A stretch of 64,000 bases of DNA from Escherichia phage UGJNEcP3, in the sequence record OV876907. One strand, written 5' to 3'. This document shows, piece after piece, positions 1,400 to 15,473 of this stretch (positions are counted from its first letter, which is position 1; each line of letters opens with the position of its first letter). The position numbers and the translations under genes were made by a program. The notes under the pieces were generated by a model, which saw only the letters and a program-made list of their open reading frames with translations, was not told the origin of the DNA and did not search any database.

Positions 1400-2347
1400 T
1401 TAATAAAAATCAGCTACTGTAGCAGTTAGTTTAGACAAACCAGATTTAACGAAATAAGGATAGACTTTGGATTTCGAAGGTTTGTTATACGTATTATATC
1501 TTTCAGTAATTAAAGCAACAATATCATCTGGAATAAAGTCCATATCAATTAAGATTTGGTTTTCACAGAAACGTTCATATTGTTCTTCAGTAAGAAGTGT
1601 TTTAATTATATCATGGTCGTAATAATTCAGAGCAATCGCTTCAAGTTCCTTGGCACGAGTGCTAGGAGTACGTTCGCCTTCAACCATTGTCAACCAGTAA
1701 TCACCACGAACTTTAATACTCGCAACGTTATCCTTGCGGTCGCCTTTAATAACCTTAGTTACACAATCAAGCAACGCATCACCAGATTTTGTTTTGACGA
1801 ATTTTTTCTGCATTGGAGACCATTGTTTCACCCCAGGGAATTTATGAAGTTGGGTAAAGTCACCATCAGAAGAACCAATCATAACGGGGTGACCTAAAGC
1901 CGTAAGGATACGAGTCAATACAGCAATATGGTCATCGGCCTCGATTGTGTCGATATTCATAACAATATAAGGCATGTTTTGTTCAAGCTCATCCACAATA
2001 ATATGCATTGCAGTGAATAAGCCTTCCCAATCAAATGGTGATTCGTCACGTGCCTTAGCACGGTTTTTCTTATAATAAGAAGAATAACGACGACGCCAAT
2101 AACCTGATTTAGAGTTATCAACACAAATGATTAGTTGGTTGTAACCTTGTTTTTTAAAGTCTTTAATGTTTTTCTTGATTGAATTCAAGACGAGATGTCG
2201 AAGCATTGCTGTTGTTACTTTAGGAAATCCGGCGTTCTCGCCAAACTCTTGGAAAGCCGCAGCCATAATGATTTGGCTGAAATCTAGGAGTAAAAACCCA
2301 TCTTTTTGTTGGTCTTCTTCAGGAAGTAAAAAATCTAAATCGTTCAT
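1400..2347 (-). CDS. rnh: RNase H / FEN-type 5'-3' exonuclease
   Basis: Matches T4 RNase H as recalled (LLDFSQ..., GYWRR, YYKKNR, IEADDHIAV, SSDGDFTQLHK); start moved to ATG 2347 (GAGG SD) because track ATG 2380 lies inside a -10 element. Confidence 0.9.
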   Translation of the reverse strand: MNDLDFLLPEEDQQKDGFLLLDFSQIIMAAAFQEFGENAGFPKVTTAMLRHLVLNSIKKNIKDFKKQGYNQLIICVDNSKSGYWRRRYSSYYKKNRAKARDESPFDWEGLFTAMHIIVDELEQNMPYIVMNIDTIEADDHIAVLTRILTALGHPVMIGSSDGDFTQLHKFPGVKQWSPMQKKFVKTKSGDALLDCVTKVIKGDRKDNVASIKVRGDYWLTMVEGERTPSTRAKELEAIALNYYDHDIIKTLLTEEQYERFCENQILIDMDFIPDDIVALITERYNTYNKPSKSKVYPYFVKSGLSKLTATVADFY

Positions 2348-2375
2348 ATGAACCTCTGTCCAATTAGTGTAGAGG

Positions 2376-2410
2376 TTCATTATATCATGACCCTAGAAGA
2401 AGTAAACACT
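2376..2410 (-). promoter_or_regulatory. early-type promoter for rnh (GTTTAC -35, 17 bp, TGaTATAAT)
   Basis: minus-sense GTTTAC (2403-2408), 17-bp spacer, extended -10 over 2379-2387. Confidence 0.5.
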
Positions 2411-2414
2411 TTGC

Positions 2415-2422
2415 TATAAATA
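2415..2422 (+). promoter_or_regulatory. T4-type late promoter TATAAATA upstream of gene 34
   Basis: exact TATAAATA 33 bp upstream of gene 34 ATG. Confidence 0.7.
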
Positions 2423-2454
2423 GTTCTATACCCTGAAAACGAAAAGGAAATAAA

Positions 2455-5400
2455 ATGGCCGATATTTTAAAACCTGCCTTCCGTGCTACATCCGGACTCG
2501 ATGCTGCAGGCGAGAAAGTTATCAATGTTGCCAAAGCCGATTACAATGTATTAGACGACGGCGTCAACGTTGAATTCTTTATAGATGAGAACACCATCCA
2601 GGCGTACGACAAGACGCGCGGATATAAGAAAGGGTTTGCCGTAATCCATGACCAACGTATCTGGGTTGCTCAACGTGATATCGATGCTCCATCAGGAGCC
2701 TTTGTACCAGGTTATTGGACTGCTACCCGTACTGACCCTAAATGGATTACTGTAGCGTCTCCTACACGCCAACTGGCTTCCGGTGAATATATTGCAGTGG
2801 ATTCTGCTGCTAGCTTTACTACATTTACCCTGCCTCCTAACCCTACAGATGGCGATACCGTTGTAATTAAAGATATCGGTGGTCGTGTTGGTTATAACGA
2901 AATAAAGGTTCAGTCCAGTTCTGCTCCTGGCGGCGGTAACCAGAAAATTGTTCGTTTTGGTAATCAGTTTACTGAGACCTTAATTACGAAGCCTTTTTCT
3001 TATAACATGCTTATCTTTGCTAACCGTCTTTGGCATTTCTGGGAATCAGGTAACGAAGAACGTGGTATCCGTGTAGAACCTAACACCGCTCAGTTCCAAG
3101 CCCAAGCTGGTGATAACATCCTCCGTCGTTATACTTCAGGTGCAGTAATTAAGTTTACTCTTCCTAAGTATGCGAACCAAGGCGATATTATTAAAACCGC
3201 TGATATCGATGGTTTAGGAAGTAAATTCCATTTAATCGTTGAAACGTTTGATGCTTCGTCTGCATTAGGTAAACCCGGACAGCATAGCATGGAATTCCGT
3301 ACCTCCGGTGATGGATTCTTTGTTTATAACTCTACCGAAAAATTATGGTATGTTTGGGACGGTGACCTTAAAACCCGTTTACGTGTAATTCGCGATGATG
3401 TTGAACTCTTGGCTAACGAAAGTGTTATTGTTTTTGGCCCTAATAATACAACACCGCAGACGATTAATATCACATTACCTACAGGCGTAGCCCAGGGTGA
3501 TGTCGTTAAGATTGCTCTGAACTATCTCCGTAAAGCTCAGACGGTAAATATTAAGGCCGCTGTAGGAGATAAAATAGCTTCTTCGGTTCAATTGCTCCAG
3601 TTCCCTAAACGTTCTGAATATCCACCGGAAACCGAATGGGTATTGAATGACGTATTGACCTTTAATGGCAATATAAGTTATACTCCGGTTATTGAACTGA
3701 GTTATATCGAAGACACCACTACAGGTGGTAAATATTGGGTTGTTGCCCAGAACGTTCCTACTATAGAACGTGTAGATTCTAAAGATGATTTAACTCGTGC
3801 TCGTTTAGGTGTTATTGCGTTGGCTACGCAGACCCAAGCAAACGTCGACCATGAAAATAATCCTGAAAAAGAACTTGCAATTACTCCTCAGACTTTAGCT
3901 AATCGTGTAGCGACTGAATCTCGTCGTGGTATTGCTCGTATTGCTACTACTGCTCAGGTGAACCAGGATACAACCTTCGCATTCCAGGACGATTTGATTA
4001 TTTCTCCTAAGAAATTAAACGAACGTACTGCAACCGAAACTCGTCGTGGTGTCGCTGAAATTGCTACGCAAGTTGAAACTGATGCTGGTATAGATGATAC
4101 TACAATCATCACTCCTAAGAAGCTACAAGCGCGGCAGGGTTCGGAAAGTCTTTCAGGTATTGTAACATATACCTCTACCGTAGGAACCACTCCTGCGACT
4201 GCTAGGGACACCGTAGGTACTAACGTTTATAATAAGAACGTAGGCAATTTGGTTATTTCTCCTAAAGCACTTGACCAGTATAAAGCTACTCAAGTTCAAC
4301 AGGGTACAGTATATCTTTCCAACCAGTCTGAAGTTAACGCAGGTCAAACTGCAAGTGGATTCGCCAATAGTGCTGTTTCTCCTGAAACATTACATGCTCG
4401 TGTGGCTCTTGATACTCGTACAGGGTTAATTGAAATTGCTACGCAAACAGAGACTGATACTGGAACAGATTATACTCGTGCGGTAACGCCTAAGACGTTA
4501 AATGATAGGAAAGCTACGGAAGGATTGACTGGTATTGCTAGAATTGCAACACAGGTAGAATTTGATGCAGGTGTATTAGATAATGTTATTTCAACTCCGT
4601 TGAAAATTAAAACAAGATTTAATGATACTGCTAGAACTTCTGTCTCAGCAGCCAGTGGTTTGGTTGAATCAGGAACCTTATGGAACCATTATACACTAGA
4701 TATTAGAGAAGCAAATGAGACACAACGTGGCACTGCTCGCCTGGCAACCCAGACCGAAGTCAACGTTGGTACCGATGATAAAACTATCGTCACTCCTTTG
4801 AAATTGCATTCTAAAAAATCTACTGAAAGTTCTGAAGGTATTATTCGTGTTGCAACCAATACCGAAACAACCGCAGGAACTTCTAAAGTTTTGGCTGTAA
4901 GCCCTTCTGGTTTAAAATATGTAGTACAGACCGAAACTACTTGGGAAGCTACTGCACTTCGTCGTGGATTTGTTAAATTAACCGAAGGTGCTTTAACCTA
5001 TTCAGGAAATAAAGTTACTGGTTCTGGTGTTAAATTCAACTCAGGTACAGGCCTTTATGAGAACGATGATACTGTTCTGAACGCAGCGAACTATCCTAAA
5101 ACGGGTTATGCGGTTTCATCTTACGAGATGAATAAAACTTTACAGAACTTTTTACCCATAAATGCTACGGCTGTGAACTCCGAGAAATTGGATGGCCTGG
5201 ATTCACTTCAGTTCATTCGTAGAGACGTCGACCAAACGGTTAATGGTTCTTTAACCCTGACCAAACAATTGAACCTGGCGGCTCCTCTGGTGTCTTCTAG
5301 TACTGCTAATATTACTGGCAATACTATTTTAGGTTCTCTGGAAGTAACTGGAAATTCTACTTTTAAAAATGATGTATCTGTTAGCTCAGGTAAATCTATT

Positions 5401-11676: not shown

Positions 11677-12456
11677 ATGGCAGTAGTAGGAATTCCTGGT
11701 TGGATTGGGACTTCGGCCGTCGCTGAAACCGGGCAAAGATGGATGTCGGCCGCTTCGAGGGAACTTCGTTTAGGAAACCCTTCATGGATGTCCCAATTCG
11801 CCGGCCGCTCAAGAGAAATTATTCACACACTTGGAGCAGACCATAACTTTAACGGTCAATGGTTTCGTGACCGTTGTTTTGAAGCCGGTGGTGCTCCTAT
11901 AGTGTTTAATATCACAGGCAACTTAGTATCATATACTAAAGATGTTCCGTTGTTCTTTATGTACGGTGATACCCCTAACGAATATGTTACTTTGAATATT
12001 CATGGTGGCGTTCATATGTGGGGCCGAGGTGGTAATGGTAGCGTAAATGGAAGCCCAGGCACTAATGGTGGCGACGTAATCCAAAATGATATTGGCGGAA
12101 GACTTCGCATTTGGAATTATGGTGTAATAGCCTCCGGTGGTGGTGGAGGTGGTGCAGTATCATTACAGAATAGTTGGCCTGCAAATTCTACCGCAGGTGG
12201 TGGAGGCGGTCGACCATTTGGTCTCGGCGGTGGTGGCGTTAATTGGCCTGGCGGCAATGCTAGTTATGACGGCCCAGGTGGTGGTGGTAATACAAGTCAA
12301 TTTGGCGGTGGTAATGGAGGTGATGCAGGTGGCGCTGGTGGCGACGGATGGGGCAATCACTTATCTAGATCTGGGGGTGGTGCTCCTGGTAGAGCAGTAT
12401 TCGGTTCCTCCCCATCATGGGGTTCTACAGGCACTATCTACGGCTCTTGGTTATAA
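11677..12456 (+). CDS. 38: T2-type glycine-rich receptor-binding adhesin gp38
   Basis: 259 aa; N-terminus [24 protein letters not shown] and polyglycine blocks as in T2/T6-type gp38 (memory). Confidence 0.85.
12127..12360 (+). repeat. GGT-rich polyglycine-coding low-complexity region inside gene 38
   Basis: runs of GGTGGTGG encoding GGGG(G) blocks separating short variable segments. Confidence 0.8.
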
Positions 12457-12498: not shown

Positions 12499-13152
12499 AT
12501 GGAACCAAAAGTAGGATTTTCATTATCAGACCTACTTTTTGGACTTCTTGATAGAATTTTTAAAGATACTTCTTCCGGGAAAGTAGTTTTTTCCCGGGTC
12601 CTAGTCGTAATATTATTGTTCTTTATGGCATTAATTTGGTATAAAGGCGAGCATATTCTAAACTTTTACAAAGAGACAACTTATGCCTCTTATACTGAAA
12701 TGATTAGACAAGACCAGGACAATAGATTTAAAATTGCGGCTATCGAGCAGCTCCGAATAGTGCATTCTTCTTCAGGCGCAGACTTCACAGCAATATATTC
12801 TTTTAGACCAACCAACATGAATTATTTTGTGGACATGGTGGCTTATGAGGGTAAATTACCGGAAACGGTAGACGCAAAAAATACGGGAGGATTTCCGATT
12901 GACAAAACGTCAGTAGAGTATATGGCGGGAGTTAACGGGAACTATTTTGAATCAAGTACAGAAACTGTGTTCCTTCCTACAAAGAAGAAAACCCAATTCA
13001 CGTATATGTTCTCATGCCCGTTTTTTAATTTGGATAACATCTATGCCGGCTCGATATCATTATATTGGTATGATATCAAACCGGATTTAGGATTTCCTAG
13101 ACTTTCGTCTATGTGTGGTCAGGCCGGGAGGACATTAGGTCGAACTCGTTAA
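12499..13152 (+). CDS. t: holin T
   Basis: 217 aa; SxSDLLFGLLDRxFKD, one TM segment, C-terminal YAGxIxxYWY as in T4 holin (memory). Confidence 0.9.
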   Translation: MEPKVGFSLSDLLFGLLDRIFKDTSSGKVVFSRVLVVILLFFMALIWYKGEHILNFYKETTYASYTEMIRQDQDNRFKIAAIEQLRIVHSSSGADFTAIYSFRPTNMNYFVDMVAYEGKLPETVDAKNTGGFPIDKTSVEYMAGVNGNYFESSTETVFLPTKKKTQFTYMFSCPFFNLDNIYAGSISLYWYDIKPDLGFPRLSSMCGQAGRTLGRTR

Positions 13153-13424
13153 AAATTGGAGGTATACATCATTAGATAACGGTGTATATCTTCATACCCT
13201 TCATTAAATTGCTCAATAAGAGTATCACGTTCGTCTTCAGTTAAAGACTTAAAGAGTTTATTAAAAGATAAGCCGTTAAGTTCCTTTCCATGTTCATTAC
13301 GAATACCTAACTCATTCAAAAAGGCAATAAACTCATCACGACGTTGCATGATGTCTTCACAATCTGTTTTAATCAAAATAGAAACAATAGTAGCAATTTC
13401 GGAAACGATTTCAATTTTAGTCAT
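13149..13424 (-). CDS. asiA: anti-sigma70 factor AsiA
   Basis: 91 aa; ...IVSILIK...FIAFLNE...DEFNEGxExxxRYLxMYT matches T4 AsiA (memory); convergent with t. Confidence 0.9.
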   Translation of the reverse strand: MTKIEIVSEIATIVSILIKTDCEDIMQRRDEFIAFLNELGIRNEHGKELNGLSFNKLFKSLTEDERDTLIEQFNEGYEDIHRYLMMYTSNF

Positions 13425-13465: not shown

Positions 13466-13494
13466 ATATTAACATATCCTTAGGGATTGTAAAC
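13466..13494 (-). promoter_or_regulatory. early promoter for asiA
   Basis: GTTTAC(13489-13494), 17 bp, TAATAT, then AGCCCTATCAGA transcribed box. Confidence 0.55.
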
Positions 13495-13638
13495 ATGTTC
13501 TTCATTCATTTTAACATATTCCTGATACATTTCTTCGATAGGTTCCTGGAACTTAAAATCAGCTCCTAGGAATTCCTCAAAGCACTCCTGCTCACGTGTA
13601 CGCATACCTGTTACGGTGTTCTCTAAGTTATGACTCAT
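13480..13638 (-). CDS. hypothetical small protein (52 aa)
   Basis: ATG 13636-13638 with AAGGGA-like SD; not in ORF track (<60 aa); ends in asiA promoter. Confidence 0.3.
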   Translation of the reverse strand: MSHNLENTVTGMRTREQECFEEFLGADFKFQEPIEEMYQEYVKMNEEHVYNP

Positions 13639-13727
13639 AGCCTTTTCCCTTATGTTTCTGCTTACGCTTGGACTCTTTAAAATTTTTCTTCTTGTCCTTA
13701 TGAACAGAAGCCTTATTGAAATCGTGC

Positions 13728-14009
13728 TTAGCTACCAGATTGTTCACGTAATTTCCTTAATTGATATTCAAGAGAGCTTATAATTTCTTTATTAGTCGCA
13801 ATATACATATCACGTAGGAATGGCTTCAACCCTTCCATATTTCCATGGATTGTCTTAGAACTAATATTCTTTATATATTCATGGTCTAATGCATCCCAAG
13901 CCGGCTGGTTGACATATGTTCCCCAGTTATCTTCTACCATAGCATTCAGACGTTTAATATGGTTGATATGGGCTTCGATTGCATCAATCTGGAGTTGTTT
14001 AAGATTCAT
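13728..14009 (-). CDS. hypothetical protein at the arn (anti-restriction) position
   Basis: 93 aa between asiA and motA where T4 has arn; not sequence-verified. Confidence 0.5.
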   Translation of the reverse strand: MNLKQLQIDAIEAHINHIKRLNAMVEDNWGTYVNQPAWDALDHEYIKNISSKTIHGNMEGLKPFLRDMYIATNKEIISSLEYQLRKLREQSGS

Positions 14010-14506
14010 TAGTAAAGGTCCTCAGAGTAAAGTTCTTTTTCACTACCACCGCGTTCAATACGAACTTGATTAGCATACGTTGCAATAATCATTGCTTCTT
14101 CACGAGTCCAATAATTTGAATATTGGTCAATAAAACCTTGGTCGTCACCACAAACATGGTCGGACACAAGTTTATCACTTACTTGGTCAAGCACTTCTGC
14201 CATATCTTTGGAATAATGACGTGCACCCGGAATAATAAGTGTTCCACCGTCTTTTAACTTAAAGCGATTGGCTGCACATACAATTCGACGTTGGTATTTT
14301 TCATTGTTATTCCAATGTGCAATCTGCCAACAGATTTCAGGAACCTCTTCTAAAACATCCTCTTCCGAATATTCAGTGTAATCACCGTAGGCTCGTAATT
14401 TAGCTGCAAGACTTTCAGGTGTCTCACGAGAAAGGGCTTTATCCAACAAGGCCATACGGTCTTTAAAGGATAATTCTTTACCTTTTAATGGATTCATTTG
14501 AACCAT
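14009..14506 (-). CDS. hypothetical protein (165 aa)
   Basis: compact early-strand ORF in arn-motA interval; no motif recognised. Confidence 0.6.
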
Positions 14507-14823
14507 CCTTTAACACGTTGCCATAAAGTTTTCTGTTGGGCTTTGTTAACACCTATTGAACGAATAACTGGTTGTGATTCCTGGTATTCTTTGTAGTCTG
14601 CTTTATAGACTTCATAAGCGGCAGGAACAAAAGTGCTGATTGCGGCCATGAAATTCTTGCGAATTCCCATAGAAGCTTCAGAACCACCACGGATGATTAG
14701 GTATTTACCCGCTTTAATCTTAACAATAGTGCCGAGATAAGCGCCGTGGTACCAAATATCCCAACCTTCTTGAGTAGGTTCTACACAACGACGAAGTTCA
14801 TTAACAATATTCAGCTTGTTCAT
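14494..14823 (-). CDS. hypothetical protein (109 aa)
   Basis: compact early-strand ORF overlapping its neighbour by 13 nt. Confidence 0.6.
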
Positions 14824-14837
14824 AATAATTTCCTCAG

Positions 14838-15473
14838 TCAGATAATTGCGTTGGTTACGGTTTTGATAACTTCAGATGATACGTTTTGGAAGTCGATATA
14901 AGTATTCTTACCACCAGTCTTAATCTTAACATCAAGATTCAAGGAAGTAAACACTTGTTTTTCTTTATCAGTCATATTATAACCGAAAATACGCATCATT
15001 CCATCACGACGGACTTCGATTTGACGAATACCATTGGTACGTTTAGCGAATCGAACTTCAAGGTTGCTACGGTTTTCAGCAATTTCACGAATCTCGATAC
15101 GGTCTTCTAATAAAGCTTTAACTTCATCAGCCAGTGTTACCATTTCAGGAGTAACACCACGTGAACTGCGCGTTTTACGTTTTTCCAACATCTCTGGAGC
15201 ATTTTCAGAAGCGAACAGGTCTGCAGCTTTTTGAACGAGGTCCATTGCTTCACCTGTAGCCACTAAACCATCACCGGATTTTTCGATGAATCCTTTCTTA
15301 ATCAATACACCGATGTTAGAGTTAACTACCGCAGCACTAAATTGCTCATTCAGGGCTTCACGGACTTCGCCTGAAGTGATGAAGTTATGCTTGATGATAT
15401 GTACTAAGATTGAAGCAGTTTTTTCATTCAGGGCGTCTTCAGAAGCTTTGATGATATAAGTAATTTTAGACAT
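14838..15473 (-). CDS. motA: middle-transcription activator MotA
   Basis: 211 aa; MSKxTYIIKAS..LNEKTA...SNIGVLIKKG...KSGDGL matches T4 MotA (memory). Confidence 0.9.
   Translation of the reverse strand: MSKITYIIKASEDALNEKTASILVHIIKHNFITSGEVREALNEQFSAAVVNSNIGVLIKKGFIEKSGDGLVATGEAMDLVQKAADLFASENAPEMLEKRKTRSSRGVTPEMVTLADEVKALLEDRIEIREIAENRSNLEVRFAKRTNGIRQIEVRRDGMMRIFGYNMTDKEKQVFTSLNLDVKIKTGGKNTYIDFQNVSSEVIKTVTNAII

Follow-up and report, generated by a model that had tools for sequence, protein, structure and literature searches.

What do the small genes between asiA and motA do in a T-even phage whose sequence holds no counterpart of arn, the gene from which their names are taken? The question is raised by Escherichia phage UGJNEcP3 (sequence record OV876907), of which a 64-kb stretch, the window, was analysed; all positions are window positions, and the reading favoured below is built on the region from about 13.1 to 15.5 kb. 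Here, three open reading frames (ORFs) of 93, 165 and 109 amino acids lie on the minus strand at 13728–14009, 14009–14506 and 14494–14823, as confirmed from a preliminary description of the sequence. The middle ORF encodes Arn.3, which is shown to be a two-part fusion: an N-terminal module of two helices, joined by an acidic, flexible linker to a core of the PF26092 family. By profile search and BLASTP, the module shares homology with the structured N-terminal end of CmdA, which serves the CmdTAC defence system as antitoxin. The genes arn.2, arn.3 and arn.4 were already known and named; the homology of Arn.3 to CmdA appears to be new, as no mention of it was found in the searchable literature on arn.3 or CmdTAC.

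CmdTAC, also called PD-T4-9, consists of the mRNA ADP-ribosyltransferase toxin CmdT, the antitoxin CmdA and the SecB-like chaperone CmdC (Vassallo et al. 2022, 2024). Its targets are specifically T-even phages, whose infection it aborts: as fresh capsid protein titrates CmdC, CmdA is left open to degradation by ClpXP, and free CmdT ADP-ribosylates mRNA. CmdA is highly variable, according to the authors who described CmdTAC.

By its closest matches, the window comes from a JS98/JS10-like Dhakavirus, a genus of T-even phages. From 13.1 to 15.5 kb, identity is 100% with Escherichia phage UGJNEcP4 and 94–95% with JS10, Bp7, IME08 and other Dhakavirus. The preliminary description could align none of the three products to T4 proteins, but BLASTP against the T4 interval gives clear matches, by which the ORFs are orthologues of T4 arn.2, arn.3 and arn.4 (T4p259–261). 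Identity is 38% over 98 columns for Arn.2 (E 1e-22), 72% for Arn.3 (E 5e-85) and 78% for Arn.4 over the 68 residues annotated in T4 (E 2e-40). Gene order, orientation, position between motA and asiA and the overlapping junctions are the same as in T4. In addition, there is synteny with JS10 and Bp7, whose records already annotate the orthologues as arn.2, arn.3 and arn.4, and precomputed Pfam assignments on relatives give PF26819, PF26092 and PF26821, respectively. The phage differs from T4 in the low identity of Arn.2, in carrying a different allele of the Arn.3 module, in a full-length arn.4 where T4 has an annotated 68-residue truncation, and in the absence of arn and arn.1 from the window. 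All three ORFs match PHROG families, and the middle one has thousands of relatives in an exhaustive search; they are real genes and not chance frames. The genes and the parts of Arn.3 are as follows.

14494..14823, minus strand: arn.4 orthologue, 109 amino acids (PF26821; PHROG 1594, E 2e-53)
14009..14497, minus strand: arn.3 orthologue, 162 amino acids from the ATG at 14497, in a frame open to 14506 (PF26092 'T4_Y16D'; PHROG 839, E 1e-72)
14378..14473, minus strand: Arn.3 residues 9–40, CmdA-like two-helix module (PADLOC PD-T4-9_B, BLASTP against CmdA, AlphaFold2)
14342..14377, minus strand: Arn.3 residues 41–52, acidic linker (lower AlphaFold2 confidence)
14012..14341, minus strand: Arn.3 residues 53–162, PF26092 (T4_Y16D) core (profile search, invariant columns, AlphaFold2)
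13728..14009, minus strand: arn.2 orthologue, 93 amino acids (PF26819; PHROG 1844, E 8e-41), a predicted helical hairpin

The CmdA-like module and the core of Arn.3

In a PADLOC scan with 5,027 models, residues 9–40 of Arn.3 match positions 2–33 of the 77 in PD-T4-9_B (E 2.9e-9). The numbering is that of a 162-residue product, in which 9–40 corresponds to 12–43 of the 165-residue ORF. This shorter product is the most likely one, because the start codons of the T4 and JS10 orthologues correspond to the second ATG of the ORF, at 14497. This ATG creates the ATGA overlap with arn.4 and has an AAGGA Shine-Dalgarno sequence upstream.

A genuine cmdTAC locus, traced with a primer sequence from the supplement of the CmdTAC paper, lies in a P2-like prophage carried by E. 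coli N2250. Genes of this prophage match PD-T4-9_A, PD-T4-9_B and PD-T4-9_C at E-values of 4e-97, 3e-38 and 7e-61, and the locus spans 1,214 bp, the same as the ECOR22 system. Its CmdA has 77 residues, ends in LAA and is encoded between CmdT and the SecB-like CmdC. BLASTP aligns Arn.3 with residues 2–33 of this CmdA, with 19 of 32 positions identical (59%, E 1e-9), and both stretches form two helices. The AlphaFold2 model of Arn.3, built on a 39-sequence alignment, has a mean predicted local distance difference test score (pLDDT) of 89. The module is modelled as exactly two confident helices, at residues 11–23 and 27–36 (pLDDT ~88–90). Confidence drops over residues 31–50 (mean pLDDT 64–69), and the linker at 41–52 differs in both length and sequence among homologues.

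Beyond the module, the two proteins part ways. The alignment ends at CmdA position 33 of 77. Arn.3 has no counterpart of the disordered chaperone-addiction tail of CmdA, and it also has no LAA degron. Instead, it continues into the folded PF26092 domain of 110 residues and ends in YSEDLY. Whereas CmdA is flanked by CmdT and CmdC, no gene for CmdT or a SecB-like CmdC lies beside arn.3, and its neighbours arn.4 and arn.2 have no PADLOC matches. A search of 50,697 phage genomes for CmdT homologues found none except in one Vibrio phage, and none in T-even phages. Across these genomes, Arn.3 of T-even phages is thus shown to be an orphan, with no CmdT partner detectable by homology.

The module is found in Arn.3 of Tequatrovirus, Mosigvirus, Dhakavirus, Roskildevirus and some metagenomic relatives, and reverse tblastn with CmdA recovers Arn.3 from 298 phage records. 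The match to PD-T4-9_B recurs in distant Arn.3 homologues (E 5e-6 to 7e-9). Among the phages compared, the module analysed here is the most CmdA-like, and that of T4 is the most divergent copy (PADLOC E 2.6e-3). In many T4-like phages that infect Klebsiella, Enterobacter, Serratia and Pectobacterium, Arn.3 consists of the core only. A degenerate-pattern scan of bacterial genomes for the CmdA-like module returned nothing.

The module and the core have different histories. Between T4 and Bas36, the Arn.3 modules are 47% identical, with a synonymous divergence (dS) of 1.3, and the adjoining cores are 98% identical, with a dS of 0.08; the ratio of nonsynonymous to synonymous divergence (dN/dS) is below 0.4 in both parts. 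Between this phage and T4, identity is 50% in the module and 84% over the first 85 core residues. Overall, the module is under purifying selection (dN/dS 0.1–0.4), and alleles separated by a dS above 1 sit on near-identical cores with a dS of about 0.1. These unlike depths of divergence point to swapping of the module and not to positive selection in place. By these estimates the module is an exchangeable cassette, whose old alleles have stayed functional while recombination shuffled them.

The core belongs to a very large family. At a cut-off of E<=1e-3, an exhaustive profile search recovered 3,820 representative clusters, of which 1,564 remain at E<=1e-10; most members are standalone proteins of 90–110 residues and some are C-terminal fusions. 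Seventeen columns are invariant in the 39-sequence alignment, many of them polar, and they include R93, H94, Q120, G121, F122, D124, R132, Q144, S158, E159 and Y162. Homology to T4 Arn.3 extends over the full length of the protein and includes the invariant motifs VCAANR, RHY, QGFID, TREEA and a C-terminal LxSEDLY. A census of C-terminal motifs showed that nearly all PF26092 proteins stop exactly at L[FY]SE[DNG]LY, and this fixed end suggests either that a free C-terminus lies in the functional site or that the motif is recognised. The preliminary description had quoted several motifs of this protein, including CGDDQGF, and proposed from its conserved core that it is an enzyme. All of the quoted motifs are in the 165-residue product and the conservation is borne out by the many invariant polar residues. 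Such conservation suits an active site or a pocket for a specific ligand and is compatible with an enzyme as well as with a specific ligand binder.

The core is modelled with high confidence (pLDDT 94–98). Foldseek against the PDB found no significant match to it (best E 0.02, TM 0.2), and searches of a local copy of Pfam-A, NCBIfam and PDB sequences, with the single sequence and with a profile, gave nothing significant. The 58 N-terminally extended members of the family have no Pfam domain and match PHROG 839 only. Structure matches in BFVD are to uncharacterised phage proteins and, weakly, to some large polyvalent proteins. Where bacterial genomes carry the core, it lies in early regions that look like prophage; gene-context mining of metagenomic contigs and bacterial genomes returned only phage or prophage early regions and was uninformative. 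A relationship of the core to the ADP-ribosyltransferase CmdT was rejected (hhalign probability 0.1%).

Possible roles of Arn.3

The favoured reading, which is held tentatively and is rather doubtful, is that Arn.3 acts as an orphan, degradation-resistant surrogate or mimic of the antitoxin that re-captures CmdT-type toxins. In a CmdTAC host, new capsid protein strips the SecB-like chaperone from CmdA, ClpXP removes CmdA, and CmdT is set free to ADP-ribosylate mRNA. Arn.3, made early and presenting toxin-binding helices on a stable globular body, would then re-capture the toxin and keep translation running. As it has neither a degron nor a chaperone-addiction tail, it would not be degraded like CmdA. 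The swapped alleles of the module would match different CmdT/CmdA variants, and the PF26092 core would serve as a stable carrier or add a second activity, with Arn.2, the helical hairpin, and Arn.4 as putative co-expressed partners. The shuffling of old module alleles onto near-identical cores is what would be expected of an interface in a molecular conflict.

Phage proteins are known to stand in for antitoxins, T4 Dmd being an antitoxin substitute. T4-like phages are also reported to have orphan antitoxin-like proteins directed against DarTG1 (PMC11257639). The concept in these cases is the same as that proposed for Arn.3: an antitoxin-like phage protein, without a toxin of its own, acts against a toxin–antitoxin defence. 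The DarTG1 and Dmd cases were shown by experiment, whereas the ground that Arn.3 has in common with its antitoxin is the 32-residue module only, and neutralisation is predicted.

Several observations weigh against an antitoxin mimic, and the first are the phenotypes of CmdTAC. The ECOR22 system strongly restricts T2, T4, T6 and 10 of 12 Tevenvirinae in the BASEL collection, despite the presence of Arn.3 in T-even phages, and T4 mutants that escape it map to alt.-3, not to arn.3. The sensitivity of T4 argues against activity of Arn.3 on the ECOR22 system at least; a Dhakavirus challenged with CmdTAC was not found in the literature. In a comparison of six phages, resistance shows no clean relation to how closely the module resembles CmdA: the sensitive Bas36 scores 81, the resistant Bas38 and Bas35 score 72 and 68, and the lowest scores belong to T4 (54) and Bas37 (51), both sensitive. 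Further, the residues common to the module and CmdA are mostly hydrophobic helix-core positions, and it is the general architecture of antitoxins in toxin–antitoxin–chaperone systems that suggests CmdT binding by the CmdA helices. Finally, the module is found in only 2 of the 58 N-terminally extended PF26092 proteins, and a copy (KPFEERLGLLDKALTKETPESLAEKLQSY, PADLOC E 2.7e-9) is embedded mid-protein in unrelated phage proteins of 320–325 residues, from Klebsiella phage PCCM_KpP_22 (Jedunavirus; 2189–3151) and Acinetobacter phage LAPP1 (2186–3160; both in coordinates of the compared stretches). This occurrence in unrelated proteins means that the module may be a general-purpose interaction module. 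Confidence in the mimic is kept low because the available CmdTAC phenotypes are unfavourable.

Two further observations concern the distribution of the module. The module-bearing proteins of the Jedunavirus and LAPP1 are partly of low complexity and are encoded beside helicase genes. Separately, the idea that PF26092 is a scaffold for many different antitoxin mimics was unsupported, given the 2 of 58 extended members with the module and no other notable PADLOC match.

The strongest alternative takes the general-purpose interpretation further and is plausible, although it too falls short of being probable. The two-helix module would be a generic, mobile interaction or regulatory module, acquired independently by CmdA and by phage proteins, and the PF26092 core would be the effector. 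Here, the module would cap, dimerise or target a core that is a small enzyme, or a binder of a ligand or nucleic acid, used in early host takeover, and no specific role against CmdTAC would be needed. The embedding of the module in unrelated 320–325-residue proteins fits this account, as do the size of the core family and its mostly standalone members of ~90–110 residues, the ~17 invariant and often polar core residues with the fixed C-terminus, the structurally similar domains within large polyvalent phage proteins and the bacterial copies in prophage early regions. So does the fact that T-even phages with the module are still CmdTAC-sensitive, with no correlation in the BASEL phages. However, 59% identity over 32 residues to the antitoxin of a system that targets T-even phages would be a striking coincidence for a neutral module. 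The phage copies are orphans, with no toxin partner; the old alleles, conserved by purifying selection yet reshuffled through recombination, look like those of a conflict interface; and no catalytic activity or fold relative can be assigned to the core that is supposed to be the effector.

An elaboration of the mimic gives both parts of Arn.3 an anti-CmdTAC function, following the logic of DarG, and is improbable. The helices would dock onto CmdT-type toxins. The core, whose fold appears to be new and which combines a cluster of invariant Arg, His, Tyr, Gln, Asp, Ser and Glu residues with the fixed C-terminus, would be a hitherto unrecognised enzyme and would strip ADP-ribose, or some other toxic modification, from RNA or nucleotides. 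If so, the more than 3,800 clusters of PF26092 would represent a new and widespread class of phage de-modification or counter-defence enzymes.

The anti-restriction label and the surrounding genes

The preliminary description placed the genes in a region tied to anti-restriction; read accordingly, the three proteins would inhibit McrBC or another modification-dependent restriction system. The names 'arn.N' are positional and mean an ORF adjoining arn. T4 Arn, an inhibitor of McrBC, is encoded by a gene that shares the neighbourhood and the transcript in T2 and T4, but its sequence is unlike that of all three proteins: no significant likeness was detected, the best BLASTP match (E 6) being of the 93-residue product to T4 Arn. 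Counterparts of T4 Arn and Arn.1 were not found in the 64-kb window (best tblastn E for T4 Arn 0.27), so that arn is missing both from the interval and from the window as a whole. The tie is thus one of naming by position, and no evidence was found that connects any of the three proteins to McrBC or to modification-dependent restriction. The counter-defence link actually found is that of the Arn.3 N-terminus to CmdA.

It is therefore quite unlikely that the three proteins are anti-restriction factors like T4 Arn. Co-transcription with arn in T2 speaks for such a role, as does the speculation of the authors of a June 2026 T2 preprint on counter-defence functions, and many GenBank and UniRef records name homologues of Arn.2, Arn.3 and Arn.4 'anti-restriction nuclease'. 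This label appears to be name creep from the positional names, with no evidential basis. In Pfam-A, NCBIfam, PADLOC and the PDB, the three proteins matched no nuclease, methylase, DNA-mimic or restriction-related family. Moreover, arn.2–arn.4 are kept here without arn and arn.1, and their function is therefore independent of Arn. The preliminary description left the genes without assigned function, and in this it agrees with the preprint, which explicitly calls the functions of arn.1–arn.4 unknown; profile searches gave none of them a known non-defence function either.

For Arn.2, a RaiA/HPF-like role in binding ribosomes and modulating translation in infected cells is very improbable. A weak, collinear similarity to RaiA/YfiA speaks for it (overall E 0.06–1; NCBIfam E 0.06–0.08; PDB phmmer E 0.7; a profile match at E 0.06 over the motif DMY.A.N..I..LE.QL.KL of the C-terminal helix; hhalign probability 80%, confined to residues 27–90), but a single amphipathic helix makes up the significant part of the alignment, there is no Pfam S30AE match, and the AlphaFold2 model (pLDDT 81) is an all-alpha hairpin with helices at 3–28 and 52–89 and not the beta-alpha-beta-beta-beta-alpha fold of RaiA/HPF. 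Foldseek against the PDB returned only generic coiled-coil hairpins (E >= 0.9) and no RaiA/HPF, and the idea was rejected on this result and the all-alpha model. Arn.2 has no significant match in PDB sequences, Pfam-A or NCBIfam.

Arn.4 has 50 related clusters with a typical length of 109 residues, and the family is confined to T-even-like phages; Pfam-A, NCBIfam, PADLOC and PDB sequences gave no informative match. In T4 (NC_000866), 41 in-frame codons upstream of the annotated arn.4 are conserved with the 109-residue family (3035–3160 of the compared stretch, minus strand; window 14700–14823), and T4 has ATA at the position of the ATG start of this phage's arn.4. T4 arn.4 may therefore use a non-canonical start, or the reference strain may carry a start-codon mutation.

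On the minus strand, the genes run in the order motA, the 109-, 165-, 93-, 39- and 52-residue ORFs, and asiA. The preliminary description equated this interval with that of T4 between asiA and motA; the position holds, but the content of arn and arn.1 does not, as only arn.4, arn.3 and arn.2, a 39-residue DUF7230 ORF and an AsiA.1-like ORF are present. The flanking features are as follows.

14838..15473, minus strand: motA, middle-transcription activator, the upstream flank (Pfam MotA_activ E 2e-38, MotCF E 9e-14)
15394..15417, minus strand: MotA-box-like candidate middle promoter inside motA (consensus match only)
14169..14193, minus strand: MotA-box-like pattern inside arn.3, upstream of arn.2 (consensus match only)
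13628..13747, minus strand: 39-residue basic ORF with a GTG start (Pfam DUF7230 E 6e-13; PHROG 1359 E 1e-22)
13480..13638, minus strand: AsiA.1-like ORF, 52 residues, the first 24 of them 46% identical to T4 AsiA.1 (PHROG 5245 E 3e-34)
13149..13424, minus strand: asiA, anti-sigma-70 factor, the downstream flank (Pfam AsiA E 2e-22)

The genes are tightly packed. Only 14 nucleotides separate the motA stop from the arn.4 start, ATGA at 14494–14497 joins the arn.4 stop to the arn.3 start, and TAATG at 14009 joins the arn.3 stop to the arn.2 start. These overlapping stops and starts suggest that translation of arn.4, arn.3 and arn.2 is coupled. The 39-residue DUF7230 ORF, a real and easily overlooked small gene, encodes a very basic product and overlaps the 3' end of arn.2 by 20 nucleotides. 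It occupies the place of T4 arn.1 and arn without being related to either (its product shows no similarity to T4 Arn.1), and in JS10 it is annotated as EpJS10_0247. JS10 and its relatives have, in addition, an Arn-like acidic ORF of 93 residues (EpJS10_0246; 1050–1331 of the compared JS10 stretch) and an extra ORF of 116 residues between arn.3 and arn.4 (2187–2537 of the same stretch); no counterpart of either was found in the whole window. By this comparison, the asiA–motA interval is a hot spot for insertions and deletions. The leader MIPMELxWDGEG is common to some Arn.3 variants and the extra JS10 ORF 0250, which suggests recombination at gene starts within the cassette.

In T2, arn.4-arn.3-arn.2-arn.1-arn forms one abundant middle transcript that is stabilised by the host small RNA ArcZ (June 2026 preprint). 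T4 carries the ArcZ pairing site reported for T2, CCAGGGAAAT, at +285 to +294 of arn.2; the 3' end of arn.2 here (13728–13770) lacks it. A copy with one mismatch lies mid-gene, at 13839–13848, and the duplex energy predicted on this arn.2 for an assumed ArcZ sequence is at the shuffle background. ArcZ regulation as in T2 was rejected here, the pairing site being missing from this arn.2, and its loss fits the loss of the downstream arn gene that the site protects. Patterns resembling the MotA box (TGCTTNA-N10-14-TANNNT) occur 25 times in the window against 5.25 expected, as would fit an early/middle region rich in middle promoters.

Outside the interval, gp38 (11677–12456, plus strand) is a glycine-rich receptor adhesin of the T2/T6 type, with 259 residues, GGGG runs and a local guanine-plus-cytosine content of up to 0.53, and is not the T4-type assembly chaperone.

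Implications for T-even phages

The genes arn.2–arn.4 are conserved in hundreds of T-even phages and highly expressed, and for decades they have stood in the record without a function. The 'anti-restriction nuclease' label that databases attach to homologues of Arn.2, Arn.3 and Arn.4 is shown to have no evidence behind it, and the homology of Arn.3 to CmdA turns 'function unknown' into a specific and cheap experiment.

If Arn.3 does act as an antitoxin mimic, lytic phages would have a new way to defeat toxin–antitoxin–chaperone systems, using toxin-binding helices that are free of degron and chaperone dependence. This would also explain the shuffled alleles of the module. If the mimic fails, the shared module still informs the origin of the highly variable CmdA antitoxins.

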